Shown here piece by piece: positions 510-19,410 of a DNA stretch of 20,000 nucleotides. The first letter of the stretch is position 1, and each line of letters begins with the position of its first letter. The notes below the pieces were generated by a model. It searched no databases, was not told where the DNA came from, and was given only the letters and a program-made list of their open reading frames with translations. The translations under genes were made by a program, and so were the position numbers. The DNA is from Chiloscyllium plagiosum. Its lineage: Eukaryota. The stretch is taken from assembly GCF_004010195.1 (NCBI RefSeq), contig NC_057757.1, positions 9,217,708 to 9,237,707 of the forward strand. Reading direction: 5' to 3'.

Positions 510-3500
510 ATAGAGCCATAGAGCATGGAAAAACATCTTTTGGGCCAATTCATCCATGCCAACCAGATATCCTAAATTAATCTAGTCCCATTTCCCAGCA
601 CTTGGCCCATATCCCTCTGAACCCTTTCTGTTCATATAACCATCCAGCTGTCTTTTAAATGCTGTAACTGTACAAGCGTCCACCACTTCCTCTGGCAGCA
701 CGTTCCATACACACACCACCATCTGTGTGAAAAAGTTGCCCTTTAGGTCCCTTCCAAATCTTTTGCCTCTCACCCTAAACTTCTGCCTTCTAGTTCTGGA
801 CTCTCCCAACTCAGGAAAAAGACCTTGTCTATCCACACTCCTCATGATTTTATAAACCTCAATAAGGTCACCTTCTGCCTCCGACGCTCCAGGGAAAACA
901 GCCCCAGCCTATTCAGCCTCTCCCTTTGGCTCAAACCCTCCAACCCTGGCAACATCCTTGTAAACCTTTTCTGAACCCTTTCAAGTTTGACAACATCTTT
1001 CCGATAGCAGCGAGACCAGAATTGCACGCAACATTCGAAAAGTGGCCTGACCAACATCCCGTAAAGCTGCAACAAGATTTCTCAACTGCTATACTCAGTG
1101 CTCTGATCAATAAAGGAAAGCATACCAACACCTTCTTCACTATCCTACCTATCTGCGACTCCACTTTCAAGGAGCTATAAATCCACACTTCAAGGTGTCT
1201 TTGTTCAGCAACACTCTCCAGGACCTTACCATGAAGTGTATAAGTCCTGTCTTTCCAATATGCAGCACCTCGCATTTATCTAAACTAAACTCCATCTGCT
1301 ACTCCTCGGCATATTGGCCCATCTGATCAAGTTCTTATTTTACTCTAACCTTCTTCACTATCCACGACATCTCCAATTTTGCTGTTATCTGCAAACTTGT
1401 GAACTATACCTCCTATGAAAAGTCATTTATATAAATAACGAAAAGTAGTGGACCCAGCAGCGATCCTTGTAACTCACCATTGGGCACAGGCCAGGTATGA
1501 AAAACAGCCCTCCACCACCACCTTTGAGCAAGTTCTGTATCCAAATGATTAGTTCTCCCTGTATTCCATGTGATCTAACCTTGCTAACCAGACTCCCATG
1601 GGGAACCTTGTTGAACCTTTCTAAAGTCCATATAGATCACATCCATCGCTCTGCCCTCATCACACCTCTTTGTTACTTCTTCCAAAAACGCAATCAAGTT
1701 AGTGAGGTATGATTTCCCACACACAAAGCCATGTTGACTATTCCAAATCAGTCCTTGCCTTTCCAAACACATGTACATCCTGTCCTTTAGGAGTCCCTCC
1801 CACAATTTGCCCACCACAGATATCAGGCTCACTGGTCTATAGTTCCCTGGCTTGCCCTTAACACCTTTCTTAAACAGTGATACCACATTAGCTAACCTCC
1901 ACCTCACCTGTGCCTATTGATGATCCAAATATCTCAGCAAGGGGCCCAGCAAACACTTCCATTGCTTCCCACAGGGTAAAACTGATTAGGTCCTGGGGAT
2001 TTATCCACTTTTATGCATTTTAAGGCATCCATCTCACACACACCCCTGTAATATGGACATTCTTCAAGATGTCACCATCTATTGCCCCACATTCTGTATT
2101 TTCCACAGTAAACACTAATGCAAAATACTCATTTAGTATCTCCCCAGTCTCCTGCAGTCACATGCATATTCCGCCTTGCTGATCTTTGAATGGTCTTATT
2201 CTCTCCCTAGTTACCCTGTTGTCCTTAGTGTTTTTGGAAACTGCCTTTGGATTCTCCTTAATTCTATTTGCCAAAGCTATCTCATGTCCCCCTTTCGCCT
2301 TCTTGATTTCCCCCTTAAGTATACTACCATTACCTTTATACTCTTCGAAGGATTCACTCGGTGTCTGCTGTCTAACCCTGACATATGCTTCCTTCTTTTT
2401 CTTAACTGACACCTCAATTTTTCTAGTCATCCAGCATTCCCTGCACCTACCAGCCTTGCCTTCCACCCTAACAGAAACACTCTGTCTTTGGACTCTCGTT
2501 ATCTGATTTCTGAAGGCTTCCCATTTTCCAACTGTCCCTTTACCTGCGAACATCTGCCTCCAATCAATTTGTGAAAGCTCTTGCCTAATACTGTCAAAAT
2601 TGGCCTTCCTCCAAATTATATCTTCAACTTTTGGATTGGTCTATTCTTTTCCATCACTGTTTTAAAATTTACAGAATTATGGTCACTGGCCCCAAAGTGC
2701 TCCCCCATTGACACCTCAGTCACCTCAGTCGCCTTATTTCCCAACAGTAGGTCAAGTTTTGCACCTTCTCTCGTAGGTACATCCACATACTGAATCAGAA
2801 CATTTCCTTGTAACACTTAATAAATTCCTCTCCATCTAAACCATTAACAATATGGCAGTCCCAGTCTGTGTTTGGAAAGTTAAAATCCCCCACCATAATG
2901 ACCCTATTGTTCTTACAGATCTCTGAGATCTCCTTACAAATTTGTTTCTCAATTTCCCGTTGACTATTGGGGGGTCTATAATACAATCCCAATAGGTCAT
3001 CATCTCTTTTATATTTCTTCGTTCCACCCAAATAACTTCCCTGGATGTATTCCCAGGATTATCTTACCCAAGTACAGCTGTAATGCTATCCCTTACCAAA
3101 AACACGACTACTCCTCCTCTCTTGCACCCCCCCACTTTTTATCCTTCCTGTAGCATTTGTATCCTGGAACATTAAGCTGCCAGTCCTGTCCATCCCTGAG
3201 CCATGTTTCTGTAATTGCTATGACATCCCAGTCCCATATTTCTAACCATGCCCTGAGTTTATCTGCCTTCCCTGCTCGGCTTCTTGCATTGAAATAAATG
3301 CAGTTTTATTTATCAGTCCTACCTTGTTCTCTGCTTTGTCCCTGCCTGTCCTGACTGTTTGACTCGCTTCTTTTTTCAACTGTACCAGTCTCAGATTGAT
3401 CTCTTTCCTCACTATCTCCCTGGGTCCCACCCCTTCACCTTATTGTTTAAATCCTCCTGAGCAGCTCCCTGCCAATATATTAGTCCCCTTCCACTTCAGG

Positions 3501-3710
3501 TGCAATCCATCCTTCTTGTACAGGTCATTTCTTCCCTAAAAGAGATTCCAATGATGCAAATATGTGAACCCTTCTCCCCTGCACCAGCTCCTCAGCCACA
3601 CATTCATTCTATCCTACTGAGCACCAGGTGTAATCCAGATATTACTACCCTCGAGGACCTCCTTTTTAAATTCCTGCCTAACTTCCTATGTTCTCCCTTC
3701 AGAATCCCAT
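510..3710 (-). mobile_element. CR1/HER1-type LINE, 5'-truncated and decayed (ORF1 esterase end, ORF2 APE endonuclease + RT, 3' UTR/tail)
   Basis: Fragmented motifs in the expected order: ORF1 ...KLGRNLKRRSSRVVISGL (~3620-3700); EN CIYFNARS (~3300), AITETW, GLYYRPPNS, MVGDFNFP, LDLLL, SDHNSV; tether KSPGP (~1990); RT WRLANVVSLFKKG..NYRPVSLISVVGKL, QHGF, YMDF, QGSLLGPLLF, KFADN; C-term LVRPLFECCVQFWS..LERVQKRFTRM, FFTQMVV..WN.LP; tail repeats near 510-525. Many stops and frameshifts. Confidence 0.93.
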
Positions 3711-3973
3711 CCTACCACCTATTCACTCATCTATTCACAATCATTCGAAGGCTGAGCCTATAAACTTACCATCTGATATCTAGGAGGAGAAAGTGAGGTC
3801 TCCTACTGAGCACCAGGTGTAATCCAGATATTACTACCCTCGAGGACCTCCTTTTTAAATTCCTGCCTAACTTCCTATGTTCTCCCTTCTGAATCCCATC
3901 CTACCACCTATTCACTCATCTATTCACAATCATTCGAAGGCTGAGCCTATAAACTTACAATCTGATATCTAGG
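3612..3973. repeat. Direct tandem duplication of 173 bp (3612-3784 and 3801-3973) with a 16-nt spacer
   Basis: Copies differ at only 2 positions (cttcAgaatc/cttcTgaatc; cttacCatc/cttacAatc). Spacer 3785-3800 is aggagaaagtgaggtc. Confidence 0.95.
3784..3801 (-). mobile_element. 18-nt terminal fragment of the Penelope-like palindromic element
   Basis: gaggagaaagtgaggtct is the exact reverse complement of 11904-11921 (agacctcactttctcctc), the end of that element adjoining its TSD. Confidence 0.7.
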
Positions 3974-5312: not shown

Positions 5313-5775
5313 ATAGCTCAGTGGTTGGCACTGCTGTCTCATAGCACCAGGGATCCTGGTTTGATCCCCACCTTGGGCAACTGTCTATGCAGTTTAATTT
5401 ATCAGTCCTGCTTTGTTCCTGCCTGTCTTGACTGTTCGACTCACTTCTTTTCCCAAGTGCACCAGTCTCAGATTGATCTCTTTCCTCACCATCTCCCTGG
5501 GTCCCACCTTACGAGTTTGCACATTGTCTCCGTATCTGTGTGGGTTCCCTCCAGATGCTCCAGTTTCTTCCCACAATCCAAAGATGTGCAGGTTAGCGTG
5601 AACTGGCCATGCTAAGTTGCCCATAGTTTCCAGGGATGTGTAGGTTGGGTGCATTAGTCAGGGATATATATCTGGTAGGGGTAATGGGTCTGGAGTGGGT
5701 TCAGAGGGTTTGTGTGGACTTATTGGGATGAAGGGCCTGTTTGCACACAATAGGGATTCTGTGGATTCTGTGAAT
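5313..5775 (+). mobile_element. tRNA-derived HE1-type SINE, interrupted by a LINE fragment
   Basis: A-box-like tagctcagtggttggcac, degenerate B-box ggtttgatccc, core gagtttgcacattgtctcc...cccacaatccaaagatgtgcaggttag, LINE-like 3' end gaagggcctgtttgcacacaatagggattct. Homologous to the SINE at 9998-10310. Confidence 0.88.
5387..5512 (-). mobile_element. Internal CR1 LINE fragment (ORF1/ORF2 junction region) inside the SINE
   Basis: Clearly homologous to 3298-3431 of the nearby LINE (shared accagtctcagattgatctctttcctcac...atctccctgggtcccacc); both translate as GPRE.VRKEINLRLV.L.KE.S.TV.TGR.KA. Confidence 0.85.
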
Positions 5776-7295: not shown

Positions 7296-7795
7296 NNNNN
7301 NNNNNNNNNNNNNNNNNNNNNNNNNNNNNNNNNNNNNNNNNNNNNNNNNNNNNNNNNNNNNNNNNNNNNNNNNNNNNNNNNNNNNNNNNNNNNNNNNNNN
7401 NNNNNNNNNNNNNNNNNNNNNNNNNNNNNNNNNNNNNNNNNNNNNNNNNNNNNNNNNNNNNNNNNNNNNNNNNNNNNNNNNNNNNNNNNNNNNNNNNNNN
7501 NNNNNNNNNNNNNNNNNNNNNNNNNNNNNNNNNNNNNNNNNNNNNNNNNNNNNNNNNNNNNNNNNNNNNNNNNNNNNNNNNNNNNNNNNNNNNNNNNNNN
7601 NNNNNNNNNNNNNNNNNNNNNNNNNNNNNNNNNNNNNNNNNNNNNNNNNNNNNNNNNNNNNNNNNNNNNNNNNNNNNNNNNNNNNNNNNNNNNNNNNNNN
7701 NNNNNNNNNNNNNNNNNNNNNNNNNNNNNNNNNNNNNNNNNNNNNNNNNNNNNNNNNNNNNNNNNNNNNNNNNNNNNNNNNNNNNNNNNNNNNNN
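7296..7795. other. Assembly gap (500 N)
   Basis: Run of exactly 500 N, probably a placeholder; true size and contiguity are unknown. Confidence 0.99.
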
Positions 7796-8740
7796 ACTGG
7801 CATCGATAGCCACCTTGAAAGGCTTTGTGTAATCCAGTGTGGCTAATACTGGGGAACTGGTTAACACAGTTTTTAGGCTGTTAAGTGCCTCTTGACAGTC
7901 CATTGTCCACTGAAACTTCTGTCCTTTTTTTTTAACAATTCGGTGATTGGAGCAGCCACACTGCTAAAGTTCGGTACAAACTTTCGGTAAGATCCACTCG
8001 ACCCCAGAACCGTAGTACTGCTTTTTTTTCATCAAAATTCTCCAATTACTTTCATTTTTGCATCTCCTGGGGCTATTTGTCCATGTCCAATCTCATGGCC
8101 CAGGAAGGTGACTTGGGTTTTGGCCAGGTTTCCCACCAAGCCTGCCTTCCGAAGTCAATCGAACAAGTCCGATAAATCCTGTAAATGTACCTTCCACGAG
8201 TGACTTGAAATCACCAGGTCATCAATATATACCACACAGTTGAGTAATCTGGCAATGACCTTATTGGTCAGTCTCTGAAATGTGGCTGGAGTACTTTTCA
8301 TTCCAAATGACATGACTTTGAACTGATATAGTCCATTTGGCGTGACGAAAGCCAAAATTACCTGTGCTCTCTCTGACAGAGGTACTTGCCTCTGAGCAAG
8401 TCCAATTTAGTAAGTTGCTTGTCCCACTTTTTTGACACAGTCCTCCAATCATAGAATTGGATATGCATCAGTCTTTGTAACGGCACTGACTTTGCGAGAG
8501 CCCACACATAACCATTGGATACCATCTAGTTTTGGCACCATGACTATGAGTGAGCTCCAGTCACTGTAACACACTTTGATTATGTCATCTTGGAGCATGC
8601 GCTCTATCTCCTTCTGAACTTGTGCCAACTTTAGAGGGTTTTGCCTATAAGGATGTTGCTTAATTGGAACAGCGTCGCCTGTATCTACATCATGCACAAT
8701 TAGGTTAGTACTTCCCAGTTTGTTTCCACACATCTCCCCA
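7796..8740 (-). pseudogene. Retrotransposon reverse transcriptase and start of RNase H (frameshifted)
   Basis: ORFs 8449-8733 and 8155-8355 (VYIDDLVI at ~8218-8229) and 7903-7796 (KPFKVAIDAS). Confidence 0.9.
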
Positions 8741-8899
8741 CGTGATGGTAATAACTCTTTCAGGTCATTTCAATTTTCTTGTGGTAATTCAATAATTTAT
8801 CCCAATTTTTGACAACTTCCTCATTGTCCAATTTGTTTTGAGGAACGTCCAATTCAGAATCCTCTGAACTTGGTTCTTCACTCTGTGCTGTAATGATGA

Positions 8900-9935
8900 A
8901 CACCGTATCCTCTTGCTTTCCTTCCTTGTCAAAATACCTTTTGAGCATATTCACATGACACACTCTGTGAGATTTCTTCCTGTCGGGAGTCCTTATCAAG
9001 TAGTTCATCTCACTCAATTTTCTCTCGATTTGATAAGGTTCACGAAACCTTGCTTTTCAAAGCTCACCTATTACTAGAAGTAACACCCATACCTTATCCC
9101 CAATTGAAAAATTGCAAATTTCTTATCCGCTGCTTGTTTCATTTAATGCTATGATACTTTTAAATGCTGTCCAGCTCTATTTAATCATTCTCTAAAATTT
9201 GACACATAGTCCAAATGGGTGGTCTCCGAATTCTGACTTATTAATTTCTCCTCAATCATTTTTAATGGTCCTTGAACTTCATGCCCAAAAATTAATTCAA
9301 ATGGACTGAATTTGGTCAATTCATTTGGTGCATGTCTGATCGCCAGAAGTACAAATGGAACTTCCTTATCCCAATCATCTGGATAATCCCGATCATAAGC
9401 CCTCAATATGGTCTTCAGTGCTTGCTGTTATCTTTCTAGCACTCCCTGATTCCGGATGGTACGCAGTAGATTTGAATTGCTTTATTCCCAGATTATCCAT
9501 AACCTCCTTGAATAGTTTGGATGTGAAGTTTGATCCTTGATCTGATTGGTAGCCCGCATCTAGTAAAAAATTAAGTAATTCTTCCACAACCCTTTTAGTT
9601 GTGATATGGCGTAATGGGATTGCTTTTGGAAATCTAGTCGACACATCCGTTATTGTTTATAAATACTTATTCCCATGTTTTGTTTGAGGTAGGGGACCTA
9701 TGCAATCAATAAAGACTCTTGTGAAAGGTTCCTCAAATGCTGGAATAGGTACTAAAGGTGCAGGTTTTATTACTACCTGTGTTTTTCCAATTAGCTGACA
9801 TGTATGAAACATCTGGCAAAATTCAACTACACCTTTGTGTAGTCCAGGCCAGTAAAAATGTCTTTGTGCTTTAGCCTGTGTTTTCTTCACTCTGAAATGA
9901 CCTCCAAGTGGTTGTTCATGCACCACTCGCAGCAC
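8900..9935 (-). pseudogene. Retrotransposon integrase (HHCC zinc domain, DDE core, GPY-like C-terminus; frameshifted)
   Basis: ORFs 9657-9935, 9393-9644, 9185-9406 and 8760-9017; FREPYQIERKLSE at ~9010-9050. Confidence 0.9.
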
Positions 9936-9997
9936 CTACTGGAAAAACAATTTGATGAATCTCTGCCCATTTCTCATCTACTTGAGTGTGCAAATGT

Positions 9998-10310
9998 CGA
10001 TTAGATTCCCTACAGTATGGAAACAGGCCTTCAGCCCAACAAGTCCACACCGACCCTCCAAAGAGTAACCCACCCAGACCCATTACCCTGCCTGATATTT
10101 ACCCCTGAATAATGCACCTAACACTATGGGTAATTTAGCATGGCCAATCCACCCTAACCTGCACATCTTTGGATTGTGGGAGGAAACCGGAGCACCCGGA
10201 GGAAACCCATGCAGACACGGGGAGAATGTGCACACTCCACACAGACAGTCGCCCGAGGCGGGAATCGAACCTGGGTTCCTGGCGCTGTGAGGCAGCAGTG
10301 CTAACCACTG
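9998..10310 (-). mobile_element. HE1-type tRNA-derived SINE nested in the Gypsy pol (between PR and INT)
   Basis: Minus strand cagtggttagcactgctgcctcacagcgccaggaacccaGGTTCGATTCCcgcctcgggcgac (intact B box), conserved core, and LINE-shared 3' end gaaggcctgtttccatactgtagggaatctaatc. Confidence 0.92.
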
Positions 10311-11712
10311 CTTGATAAGGCATCATTTGTGTAGTAATAACACACAGGAATGCATTCACTTTCTCTCTTTGTAAATGCCTTTTGATATAACTGTTTTAAC
10401 TCCTCATCTTTCTGCTGTAATTCAATCAGCATAATAGAGCTAAAGATGCTTGCATGTTTACCTATTTGCTCCCTCTCTGTCCCACTTATCTGATCAAAGA
10501 AAGTTTTGGATAACACTTCATCAGCTTTGTTATCTGTGTGGTTTGATCTCTCCTGCTTCAACTTGTGCCTCTATGATCTTGTGATCACACACTCGGGGAA
10601 AATTCCTGGATAAACATCTGTCATGTCTTCAGCTGTCTGTGTCTCCACTAGCTTTTCAACTAGAGTAGGCAGCACACCTAGCGGTGAATCAGCGATATCA
10701 TTTGCAAGGACAAATTGTATTCCTGGAGGTGAGAGTTTGTCCAATACTCCTACCACAGATTCTCCACTCTTCTCTAGACCCTCTAGCCTCACTTTACATA
10801 ACTGAGCACTTTTTGTCTCACCATGGATTCTGTTACCAGTACCATTTCTGGCAATAGTCCCTCAGGAGTCCATATCTCCTCATCCTTCAGCATCACAAAC
10901 TGAGAGGATCCTGTGTCCTTTAATATTGTAACCTCTTTACCTGCTGCTCCTGGCCTATGTGAATAAACGTTACCCTTGCATGTATATTTTTTAAGCAGAT
11001 CCGGCACTTCCTCCTTAACCAATCTCTGATCATCTTGTGCACTCTGAGGCAGTTGTCTAACTTCCTTTGTGCTTTTTGTTACTAGCCCAACAAAACTCCC
11101 AGCCTTGTCTGGTTTCCCTACATCTGGCTTTCTCCTAGCCCACCAACACTGTGATTTTGTGTGGCCCACTTTATGACATTGAAAACACTGGAGCTTTTTA
11201 ATTTCTTTGTCTCCCTCTAGGGTGTCTTTTTTACCCTGTAGCAAGTTATCCTTGTGATCTTCACTCAAATCTACCTTTCCCTTTTCACGTGAGGCTTTCT
11301 CTTTGCCCCAGTTTCTATCCCTCATGGACTGAAATTGATTCTGGAAGCCAAATTATGTTTTACGGACCAGGTCATGATCATCAGCCCCTTCAGCTGCTAA
11401 CATCGCTGCTTTAACTCTCTGCTCTTCCACATGTGTTCGCACTACTTCAGGCAGTGAATTTCTGAATTCCGTCAAAATAATTACCTCTCTAAAGGCATCA
11501 TAGGTTTGCTCGATTTTTAAAGCTATTATCCATCTATTGAAATTACTCTGTTTGATCCTTTCAATATAGGTTTGACCAGGGTCCCACTTTAGATTCCTAA
11601 AACGTTGTCTATAGGCATCTGGTACAAGCTCATATGCACTTGGAATGGCTATTTTCACCTCCTCATACTCCCCCGATACCTCCTCTGATAGTGATGTGAA
11701 TATCTCACTAGC

Positions 11713-11921
11713 TGAAAATGTGTTGCTGGAACAGCGCAGCAGGTCAGGCAGCATCCAGGGAACAGGAGAATCGACGTTTCGGGCATAAGCCCTTCTTCAG
11801 GAAGGCTTATGCCCGAAACGTCGATTCTCCTGTTCCCTGGATGCTGCCTGACCTGCTGGGCTTTTCCAGCAACACATTTTCAGCTCTGATCTCCAGCATC
11901 TGCAGACCTCACTTTCTCCTC
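11713..11921 (+). mobile_element. Palindromic non-autonomous Penelope-like (pLTR-derived) insertion with 15-bp TSD
   Basis: TSD GAATATCTCACTAGC at 11698-11712 and 11922-11936. Inverted arms 11710-11791 and 11804-11885 (80/82 complementary) around a 12-nt spacer, then a unique 36-nt tail. Removing it restores gag SRASEIFTSL. Confidence 0.85.
11768..11803 (-). ncRNA. Minimal type I hammerhead ribozyme-like motif
   Basis: Minus strand reads UUC-CUGAAGA-A-GGGC-UUAU-GCCC-GAAAC-GUC-GAUUC: CUGANGA box, 4-bp stem II, GAAA box, palindromic ACGU stem III, GUC cleavage triplet. Stem I is weak in this copy. Confidence 0.6.
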
Positions 11922-12456
11922 GAATATCTCACTAGCCCTACTGACAAATTTTGTTTGGATCAACAAAACCCACATTGCCACTGGCAATTGCATTTGTTTA
12001 GCCACCTTTTCAAATGAGATGAAAAAGGCTTCCACATCCTTCTCATCAAATTGAGGCAATGCCTGAACATACGTAACCAGTTTCTCACTCGGCTCCTGAC
12101 CACCAGGGGCTTGCTCATCCTCACTCTCCTCCTCACTAAGCCTACCCTCAGCCTTTATCTCCAGCCTTTTCAGCTGACTTTCCTTTTTAAGTGTCAGTTT
12201 TTGAAGTTCAAAAGCTCTCTCTTTTTATTTCTCTGCTCTCATTCCCCCTCTTTTCTGCTGCTGCTCTCTTTTTCCCTCTCTTCTGCTTTTGATCATAACT
12301 CAAACTGTCCCATTTCTGCTGCCTTTTCCTTATCTGTCCCCTCTAACTCAAGCTGCTTCACTGGCAGTTGTATTCTTGCCATCTCGATAGATTCTGATGA
12401 TTTCTCTGGCATTTTTAAATGCTGAGCTACTGCTGTAATTATCTCTCCTTTCCTCA

Positions 12457-12596
12457 CATAGCACATAGAACATTACAGCGCAGTACAGGTCCTTCGGCCC
12501 TCGATGTTGCGCCAACCTGTCATACCAATCTGAAGCCCATCTAACCTACACTATTCCATGTACGTCCATATGCTTGTCCAATGACGACTTAAATGT
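12457..12596 (-). mobile_element. Short 3'-tail fragment of a young CR1/HER1-type LINE nested in gag
   Basis: (catagaa)n-type tail plus acagcgcagtacaggtccttcggccctcgatgttgcgcc; about 7 differences in ~110 nt from 15001-15117. Confidence 0.85.
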
Positions 12597-12786
12597 CCAA
12601 TCCAGTCAGGTCAGCTAATTCCTGCAATTTGGTCTTATTCACCTTTTGCAAAACTTCCAAGGCCACTGCGTCCACATCCAGTAAACTTCTGATGACTGAA
12701 AGAGCCATTACTGTCCCAAACTTTGTCTACCCAACCAAACCAACACCCGAAATCAAGACACTAGTACCTACCACTTGCTGTTTAAA

Positions 12787-12805
12787 ATCCCACAAAGAGC
12801 CCTCA
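12787..12805 (-). promoter_or_regulatory. Degenerate primer-binding site, tRNA-Pro-like
   Basis: Minus strand TGAGGGCTCTTTGTGGGAT versus canonical tRNA-Pro PBS TGGGGGCTCGTCCGGGAT; 3 nt after the inferred LTR end and ~80 nt before the gag ATG. Confidence 0.6.
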
Positions 12806-12808
12806 GTC

Positions 12809-13460
12809 TATTATGGACTAGGCCAGACCACTCAGAACATTTTTAAGATGGCAGCCCCAGACCATAACTTTGCAATTTGTTTTGGTCAGTGGACAGTGAA
12901 AATTACCCAGATTAAGTTAGCTAGGTTGACTACTAGATTTTAAAACAGACAAAACATTATTCACAAAATTACACAATGAAACACAAAGAACAGAATAAAA
13001 AACCCCGACAGAACTCAAGCAATCCAACTAGACTGAATTATGCTGTTTCCAAATAGACACAACAGTCCCAATAAGCAAACTCCCTTTAAAACCCAGTATA
13101 AATGGAACACATGCTTACAGGTTGAAGATGAAGGGCAGAAAAGAGAGAGTTTCCACACAGCTCACTGTTGAGCTCCTCACCAGTTCAAAACTGAACTAAA
13201 AACTGCTCAGCTCAGCTAGAGAGCTGACCACTCTCCTTTCATTATACAGGTCACTTCTAAGACATGACCACTTTGGCCTGAAGTCTCATTTGTTTACATA
13301 TAAACAAAAGGCCCCTCAAAACCCTTTTCATCTCTGTACCAAACCAGACTGATCGGAGCCCGGCCCGGTTTATTGCCCCTCTAAAAAAAAAGCCAAGGAC
13401 ACAGAGTCAATTTGAGCTCAGGAACAGCTTTTAGAAAAAAAAGGGACTAGCTTTGTGACA
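12809..13460 (-). repeat. Putative 5' LTR (~650 bp)
   Basis: Starts TGTCACA exactly where CR1 homology stops (13461 onward), ends ...CCATAATA (likely decayed ..ACA) just before the PBS; non-coding. No second LTR is visible to confirm boundaries. Confidence 0.65.
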
Positions 13461-14020: not shown

Positions 14021-15000
14021 ATGCCATATGCCTTCTTTACCATCCAATCTAATTGTGCGACCAACTTCAAGGAGGTATAGACTTGGACTGCAAGATCCCT
14101 CTGGACATCAATGTTGTTCAGGGTCCTGCCAAAACTGTATACTTTTTCTTCATATTTGATCTCTGAAAGTGCATCACCTCACTCTTACGCAGATTAAGCT
14201 TCATCTGTCATTACTCAGCACATATCTGCAGCTATATCCTTTGACAACCTTCCACACTATCCACAACCCCACCAATCTTTGTGTCATCTACAAATGTACT
14301 GAATCATCCCTCCACATTTTCAGCCAAGTAATTTATATACATCACAAACTGCAGAGGAACACCACTAGCCACAGACCTCCAGTCAGAGAAACACTCTTCC
14401 ACCACTACCCTCTGCCTTCTATGGTCAAGCCAATTCTCAATCCACATGGCCAAGTCACTATGGAAACCACGCACCTTAATCTTCTGGATGAGCCTATCAT
14501 GAGCGACCTTGTCGAAAGCCTTACTATAATCCATGTAGACAACATTCACTGCTCCACCCTCATTGATCACCTTTGTCACCTCCACGTAAAATCCAATCAA
14601 GTTAGTAAAACATGCCCTCCCTCACATAAAGCAATGCTGACTGTCCCTAATTAGGGCATGCTTTTCCAAATGCATGTAAATCCTATCCCTAAGAATTCTC
14701 TCCAATAACTTGAAAACCATCGATGTGAGACCCACAAATCTACAGTTTCCTGGATTATCCCTATTTCCCGTATTTGAACAGAGGAGCAACATTAGCTCCT
14801 TGCCAGTCCTCCAAGACCTCTCCAGTGGCTAGTGAGGGCACAAAGATCTTGGTCATGATCCCAGCAATCTCCTCTCTTGTGTCTCTCAATAACCTGGGGT
14901 AGATACCATCGGGCCCTGGGGACTTTTCCACCTTAATGCTTGTCAAGAGACCCAACACCATTTTCTTTCTTGATTTCAAAATGCCTGAGCACATGAGCAT

Positions 15001-15117
15001 ATAGAACATAGAATATTACAGCGCAGTACAGGCCCTTCGGCCCTCGATGTTGCGCGGACCTGTCATACCAATCTGAAGCCCATCTAACCTACACTATTCC
15101 ACGTACATCCATACGCT
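15001..15117 (-). mobile_element. Short 3'-tail fragment of a young LINE inside LINE 2
   Basis: atagaacatagaatattacagcgcagtacaggcccttcggccctcgatg..., near-identical to 12457-12596. Confidence 0.85.
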
Positions 15118-19085: not shown

Positions 19086-19410
19086 TGTCCCACACCCAGG
19101 TTCAGCAAACATCAACGACCGAAGTTTGTTGTGGAAACGGGACAGCGAGATGGCTGTTCTTGTGGAAGACACTGAGATGGAGGCATCTGTGATGGATGGT
19201 GAAGAATACCAAGCTGGAAGATTCGCCCGGCACCTTCGACTCCAGTGTGTCCCACACCCAGGTTCAGCAAACATCAACGACCGAAGTTTGTTGTGGAAAC
19301 GGGACAGCGAGATGGCTGTTCTTGTGGAAGACACTGAGATGGAGGCATCTGTGATGGATGGTGAAGAATACCAAGCTGGAAGATTCGCCCGGCACCTTCG
19401 ACTCCAGTGT
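19086..19410 (+). repeat. Perfect 162-bp tandem duplication covering the acceptor and most of the PLD exon
   Basis: 19086-19247 equals 19248-19409 with no mismatch found; the period is a multiple of 3. Confidence 0.96.

Follow-up and report, generated by a model that had tools for sequence, protein, structure and literature searches.

A 209-bp hairpin in Chiloscyllium plagiosum probably arose by recent insertion of two terminal fragments of a highly abundant Penelope-type element, set back to back

Penelope-like elements (PLEs) leave insertions of a recognizable shape, which is described in a small number of papers drawn on here for the available parts of their text. Arkhipova et al. report inverted pLTRs, a 31-bp tail, and target-site duplications (TSDs) of 8-10 bp, with the head-to-head arrangement as the most frequent form (PMC3846280). 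Craig et al. present an inverted, 5'-truncated copy with a one-sided tail of 30-40 bp as typical (PMC8557442, Fig. 2 legend). In the anole, the PLE protein cleaves both strands, extends each of them, and initiates at two sites with the tail between them; its main substrate is uncleaved RNA (Frangieh et al., PMC11167929). For the head-to-head arrangement, self-priming on an antisense template has been proposed instead (PMC3846280), and a search of the literature found nothing on twin priming in Penelope elements. The minimal hammerhead ribozymes (min-HHRs) of metazoan PLEs are mostly solo motifs of truncated elements, and opposite-strand pairs lie 100-700 bp apart; the available parts of that study name no cartilaginous fish among the hosts (Cervera and de la Pena 2014, PMC4209133).

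The window analyzed here is a stretch of 20,000 nucleotides from the genome of Chiloscyllium plagiosum, to which all positions below refer. The 209-bp hairpin within it most likely results from a recent insertion in which two terminal fragments of a highly abundant Penelope-type element were placed back to back, and it is an ordinary case of a known kind. It is composed as follows.

11698-11712, no strand: left TSD, 15 bp, whose last 3 nt equal the family sequence at 11883-11885
11713-11803, minus strand: inverted unit of 91 nt without tail, starting 3 nt before hammerhead C3 (a loose-end peak at 11803 in 4 of 4 data sets) and stopping at the inner end point
11769-11803, minus strand: minimal type I hammerhead motif, with C3-A9 at 11800-11794, an extra A at 11793, stem II at 11792-11789 with 11784-11781, and GAAA at 11780-11777
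11804-11885, plus strand: direct unit, 5'-truncated inside stem II and without the CUGA box; GAAAC-GUC is kept, with the cut site after 11822
11886-11921, plus strand: tail of 36 nt, at a single end only, with the outer family end at 11919-11921
11922-11936, no strand: right TSD, 15 bp, an exact repeat of the left one

The exact repeat and the arm alignment confirm the anatomy given in a preliminary description of this DNA, namely a 209-bp insert (11713-11921), a 15-bp TSD, 82-nt arms with two mismatches, and a 36-nt tail. Besides the TSD, no exact repeat of at least 8 nt exists between 11680-11719 and 11890-11944, and the chance of a 15-bp direct repeat is about 2e-6 in a 40x40 search box. 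Contigs matching the flanks stop at 11712 or begin at 11922, which is consistent with the repeat being host sequence. The arms, 11710-11791 and 11804-11885, differ at 11732/11863 and 11736/11859, and 3 of the 82 left-arm bases (11710-11712) fall within the TSD. The 3-nt match of the left TSD to 11883-11885 is a possible priming microhomology, and the tail is 39 nt long if it is discounted. The plus-strand unit measures 118 nt with its tail. On the hammerhead strand, the 5' ends of both units meet between 11803 and 11804, so that the units stand head-to-head and not, as initially described, tail-to-tail; this strand is also the ORF-sense strand in two contigs considered below (L005 and L006). 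Each TSD copy directly borders the 3' end of one unit, which would follow from priming of both units at the target.

Both arm mismatches are sites where the insert deviates from the family majority. The arms share family alleles at two variable positions (11758/11837 and 11762/11833), as expected from a single template or subfamily. The insert holds seven CpG dinucleotides, with an observed/expected ratio of 0.48 vs 0.31 in the window and 0.26-0.28 in the flanks. Thus, with two arm mismatches, an intact TSD, and seven CpG, the insertion is young, in line with the CpG-retaining state noted earlier. Arm-to-arm repair could give it a falsely young look.

The insert splits the gag region of another, decayed retroelement.

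8158-12224, minus strand: host, a decayed Gypsy-type LTR retrotransposon in the order SCAN/gag, integrase, RT, with Pfam matches to SCAN, Integrase_H2C2, rve, Integrase_p58_C, and RVT_1

Pfam matches at E up to 0.01 were obtained in 8 of the 13 pieces tested, with SCAN at 11356-11697, the integrase domains at 9935-8763, and RT at 8406-8158. The integrase-before-RT order is presumably that of the Gmr1 type. No PLE ORF lies next to the insert. Taken as 8158-13460, the decayed element also holds a LINE-like end piece at 12455-12574 that is 93% identical to 14998-15117; a 500-N assembly gap occupies 7296-7795, and a further RT-like fragment adjoins. Elsewhere in the window, 5387-5508, inside a SINE-like repeat, is an 84% copy of 3298-3431, 2 kb away. 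At 19086-19409, a piece of 162 nt is exactly duplicated in tandem. Its translation resembles a phospholipase D exon, with a weak match to Pfam PLDc_2, and a GTAAGT donor-like site follows; the duplication may be a real exon duplication, a pseudogene, or an assembly error.

The hammerhead core runs on the minus strand from C3 (11800) to C17 (11773), exactly as first quoted. G12-A14 lie at 11780-11778, A15.1 at 11777, and GUC at 11775-11773; stem II is GGGC/GCCC, and the cut is predicted after C17 at 11773. The assignment to minimal type I hammerheads with an extra A and a palindromic stem III is borne out by the CUGANGA and GAAA boxes, the nucleotide added after A9, the G10.1-C11.1 pair, the NUH site, and the palindromic ACGU at 15.1-16.1. 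The palindrome is suited to a dimer and gives a 4-bp intermolecular duplex of -3.1 kcal/mol; the active dimer is absent from the free two-strand fold of the core region. A stem I of about 4-5 bp, as in min-HHRs, is not present in the insert copy, where stem I has 2 bp, and the upstream family letters of the loose-end consensus would give one further pair past a U-U mismatch. On its own, the loose pattern CTGANGA-N8-30-GAAA occurs no more often than expected by chance (2 matches vs 2.17 expected), so the case for the motif depends on stem II, GUC, and the family context. Rfam returned 12 matches at E up to 10, none reaching its gathering cut-off and none to a hammerhead model.

Folding places this core in a very stable hairpin. 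The MFE is -169.2 kcal/mol (z -23.4), none of 200 shuffles is equally stable, and the longest unbroken Watson-Crick run is 55 bp. A transcript would form long dsRNA, as was foreseen. Stem II has a pairing probability of 0.97-1.0 in the 91-nt unit alone and of 0.0 in the whole insert, where forcing it costs +21.9 kcal/mol. Because stem II is predicted not to pair within the hairpin, the ribozyme of the insert copy is probably inert. The hammerhead would have been inherited from the pLTR and would be buried in the hairpin of any transcript from this copy.

The repeat family to which the insert belongs was delimited by aligning 11500-12100 to four of 24 listed sequence data sets, three of the four being contig sets (including X1 and X5) and one consisting of raw RNA reads (X21). 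X5 carries another species label, and the differences, joints, and loose ends counted in X1 and X5 are lower bounds. Family contigs number 87,705 in X1 and 106,015 in X5. In X1, depth, which does not equal copy number, is 2.2-9.3 million in the insert vs 0.7-47 thousand in the flank bins, with the boundary bin 11920-11940 set aside, and X5 repeats this contrast. Loose ends occur at 11919-11921 in all four data sets and are followed by unlike AT-rich letters (agreement 0.32-0.49); these positions are the true family end. The second peak, at 11803, is followed by about 5 shared letters, after which agreement is 0.34-0.35 in contigs and 0.47 in raw reads. At least 754 X1 contigs have loose ends at 11803, vs at least 1221 plus at least 537 at the outer end. 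Loose ends at 11875-11884 reflect other subfamilies, which diverge at 11872-11884, and several family variants exist between the hammerhead and the tail.

Most family pieces are single units with one end fixed and the other variable. Inverted pairs are common in the family, and their junctions vary. Among the 15 joints listed (671 more exist), 10 link 11803 to ten different points at 11840-11892, each present in at least 2-12 X5 contigs, and one connects opposite strands near the tail. Because inversion points differ among copies, the palindrome seems to be generated anew whenever a copy inserts, rather than being a fixed mini-element. In X21 (about 2% of the data set), 3,197 reads match, in either orientation; 97% of them continue into dissimilar sequence, and the depth over the flanks is 0-6. 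The family is transcribed in both orientations according to these reads, and the flank depth gives no indication of expression from the insert locus. X21 has 19 A>G places, and the three contig sets have 8-10; as these two kinds of data are not comparable, the excess is at most a hint of editing.

The association of this motif type with PLE coding sequences comes from other contigs. Family-specific patterns had no match in viral, metagenome, or prokaryote contigs, and a relaxed core pattern had none in viral contigs and seven in prokaryote assemblies (L001-L007). In two of the seven, the core lies downstream of a same-strand GIY-YIG ORF, by 87 nt in L005 and 349 nt in L006, with Pfam GIY-YIG matches that only just exceed the cut-off.

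L005:4001-4967, same strand: GIY-YIG ORF, then minimal hammerhead, on a contig filed under a bacterial metagenome bin
L006:2-1047, same strand: GIY-YIG ORF, then minimal hammerhead, on a contig filed under a bacterial metagenome bin

Both contigs are probably eukaryotic DNA contaminating bacterial bins. Stem I, which the search pattern left free, comprises 4-5 pairs in L002, L005, and L006; L002, from the bin shared with L005, carries a hammerhead with a 5-bp stem I and has no ORF match. In an alignment of the window motif with these three, 5 of 8 pairs vary on both sides and 0 of 500 shuffles match the score, for a set of four sequences of which three were hand-picked from the seven matches and in which three stem II pairs were preset by the search pattern. 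The remaining four matches were left out of the alignment. L003, L004, and L007 were dropped with at most one stem I pair adjoining the core and prokaryote-like sequence. L001:4001-4025, on a 3.5-Mb Flavobacteriales contig, is hammerhead-like with 5 stem I pairs, including 3 G-U, and an A at position 17, and may be a real ribozyme or chance.

The L005 GIY-YIG protein has no relative among viral contigs. The 40-aa open frame at 11802-11921 (+), considered as a possible ORF start, had no candidate among longer proteins, and its only matches, two repetitive bacterial proteins (Ig-like and PASTA repeats), were rejected as spurious. Neither family-pattern scans nor protein searches with the 40-aa frame, which gave nothing relevant, reached an RT or GIY-YIG ORF of the insert's family, and the direct link to such an ORF suggested earlier is not supported by them. 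L005 and L006 connect the motif type, and not the insert's family, to PLE ORFs, the shared feature being the hammerhead core only.

The most probable account, at roughly 0.7, is a single recent insertion by a PLE RT/GIY-YIG protein that copied the end module alone (the pLTR with its hammerhead plus the tail). The PLE endonuclease would nick both target strands 15 nt apart, and each 3'-OH would prime reverse transcription on element RNA. One cDNA would begin at the outer start site and produce the tail, and the other would begin at an inner site 36-39 nt upstream. Both would extend in the direction of the hammerhead along RNA that had escaped self-cleavage, halt at or just before the hammerhead, and be joined between 11803 and 11804. 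In the two units, 31 and 19 nt remain on the 5' side of the cut site, so the template RNA was presumably uncleaved there. The hairpin would then be a by-product and the insert copy dead on arrival. We infer priming on two strands, and the head-to-head inverted unit, the one-sided tail, and the TSD fit the published PLE pattern, in agreement with the Penelope-like origin first proposed.

Simple random truncation of a long RNA leaves the frequent 11803 ends and the fast loss of agreement (0.34) unexplained. The main rival account of this sharp boundary before the hammerhead is a dedicated short non-autonomous RNA of ~130 nt, running from a few bases before the hammerhead to the tail, which a PLE protein would use as template in trans, with inversion at insertion. 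The strong 11803 boundary and a shared extension of only ~5 letters in all four data sets speak for such a template, as does the very high abundance of the family, and non-autonomous PLE derivatives are on record in the available parts of two sources (PMC8557442; bioRxiv 10.64898/2026.07.22.740005). However, the raw RNA reads of X21 give a longer upstream consensus (agreement 0.47-0.54), so some copies extend upstream, and they show no pile-up of RNA starts or ends, in a library that may be unable to reveal them. Transcription from a pLTR promoter, or stopping of the RT at the hammerhead, would likewise produce this boundary. A dedicated short RNA is unlikely. The strong form of the preliminary description, in which the whole 209-bp palindrome replicates as a family of mini-elements bearing a ribozyme, is very improbable: its clean TSD, near-perfect arms, and intact core, and the 12% of X1 contigs (10,514/87,705) that are at least 99% alike over the matched part, are set against inversion at many different points in other copies, a core on one arm only, a ribozyme fold blocked by the hairpin, and an X1 depth that drops at the center (2.6-3.2 million vs 9.3 million).

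A DNA MITE or fold-back transposon with a chance hammerhead-like string would account for the long inverted repeat and for a loose core pattern at chance level. However, MITEs have terminal inverted repeats and a structure fixed across copies; here the inverted repeat is non-terminal, with a 36-nt tail at one end, the joints vary, most pieces of the family consist of one unit in which only one end is fixed, and in other contigs the motif is associated with GIY-YIG ORFs. The one-sided tail and variable joints point to retrotransposition, as had been argued before, and leave a MITE barely credible. An assembly artefact from a fold-back read could be suspected, as no contig among the matches listed spans the whole stretch, but a fold-back would yield neither a TSD, a one-sided tail, nor two arm mismatches. 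A microRNA precursor is suggested by Rfam matches to mir-680 and mir-3127 (E 1e-4 to 3e-3), but these score 37-40 bits, far under gathering cut-offs of 82-104, and fall on both strands. Artefact and microRNA together have next to no probability.

The family left a second trace in the window.

3784-3801, minus strand: the 18 terminal nt of the tail, without change, flanked by direct repeats of 173 nt at 3612-3784 and 3801-3973

The repeats differ at two sites, and the stub between the copies is 16-18 nt, with a chance of about 5e-7. The region 3612-3973 has the appearance of an abortive insertion by a PLE that is flanked by a very long target duplication, a single case that does not show the cause; a search found no literature on retrotransposons creating such duplications. 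A wider and more speculative reading, which we consider unlikely, takes a short RNA starting just before the hammerhead as the main PLE template in this lineage, with one-event priming on both strands of a staggered break and nicks up to 173 bp apart. The one-sided tail would come from the two start sites, and the cDNAs would join at the ribozyme; where almost nothing was inserted, as with the 18-nt stub at 3784-3801, the outcome would be a tandem duplication of host DNA. If so, genomic copies of the family would document the second-strand step of PLE insertion, which is unsolved, and the family would generate small duplications and long dsRNA.

As a lone copy, the insert has little importance. 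Taken as a family, its copies form a very large natural collection in which open steps of PLE insertion can be studied: the start and stop points of reverse transcription with respect to the hammerhead, the origin of inverted copies, and the length that target duplications reach. Additionally, head-to-head copies of the family seed long hairpins in host transcripts.

As far as the available parts of the published accounts go, the insert resembles EN+ PLE insertion units in its head-to-head inverted 5'-truncated unit, one-sided 36-nt tail, and TSD, as well as in having the hammerhead in the terminal module and an apparently uncleaved template (PMC3846280, PMC8557442, PMC11167929). Unlike those units, it contains no ORF part, and its TSD is 15 bp, compared with 8-10 bp in the rotifer examples. 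It shares with metazoan PLE min-HHRs a type I core, an extra nucleotide between 9 and 10.1, the G10.1-C11.1 pair, a palindromic 15.2-16.2, and the absence of loop 3 (Cervera and de la Pena 2014, PMC4209133). At 4 bp, stem II is shorter than in Schistosoma (7-8 bp), and the 2-bp stem I is shorter than the 4-5 bp of Schistosoma and equal to the 2 bp of D. virilis (PMC4209133). Like the animal non-LTR retrozymes, as partly described, the insert is non-coding, PLE-related, and carries a type I hammerhead (bioRxiv 10.64898/2026.07.22.740005). However, the units of retrozymes are arrayed head to tail in tandem and each contain a complete ribozyme, whereas the insert is a head-to-head pair with one complete core.
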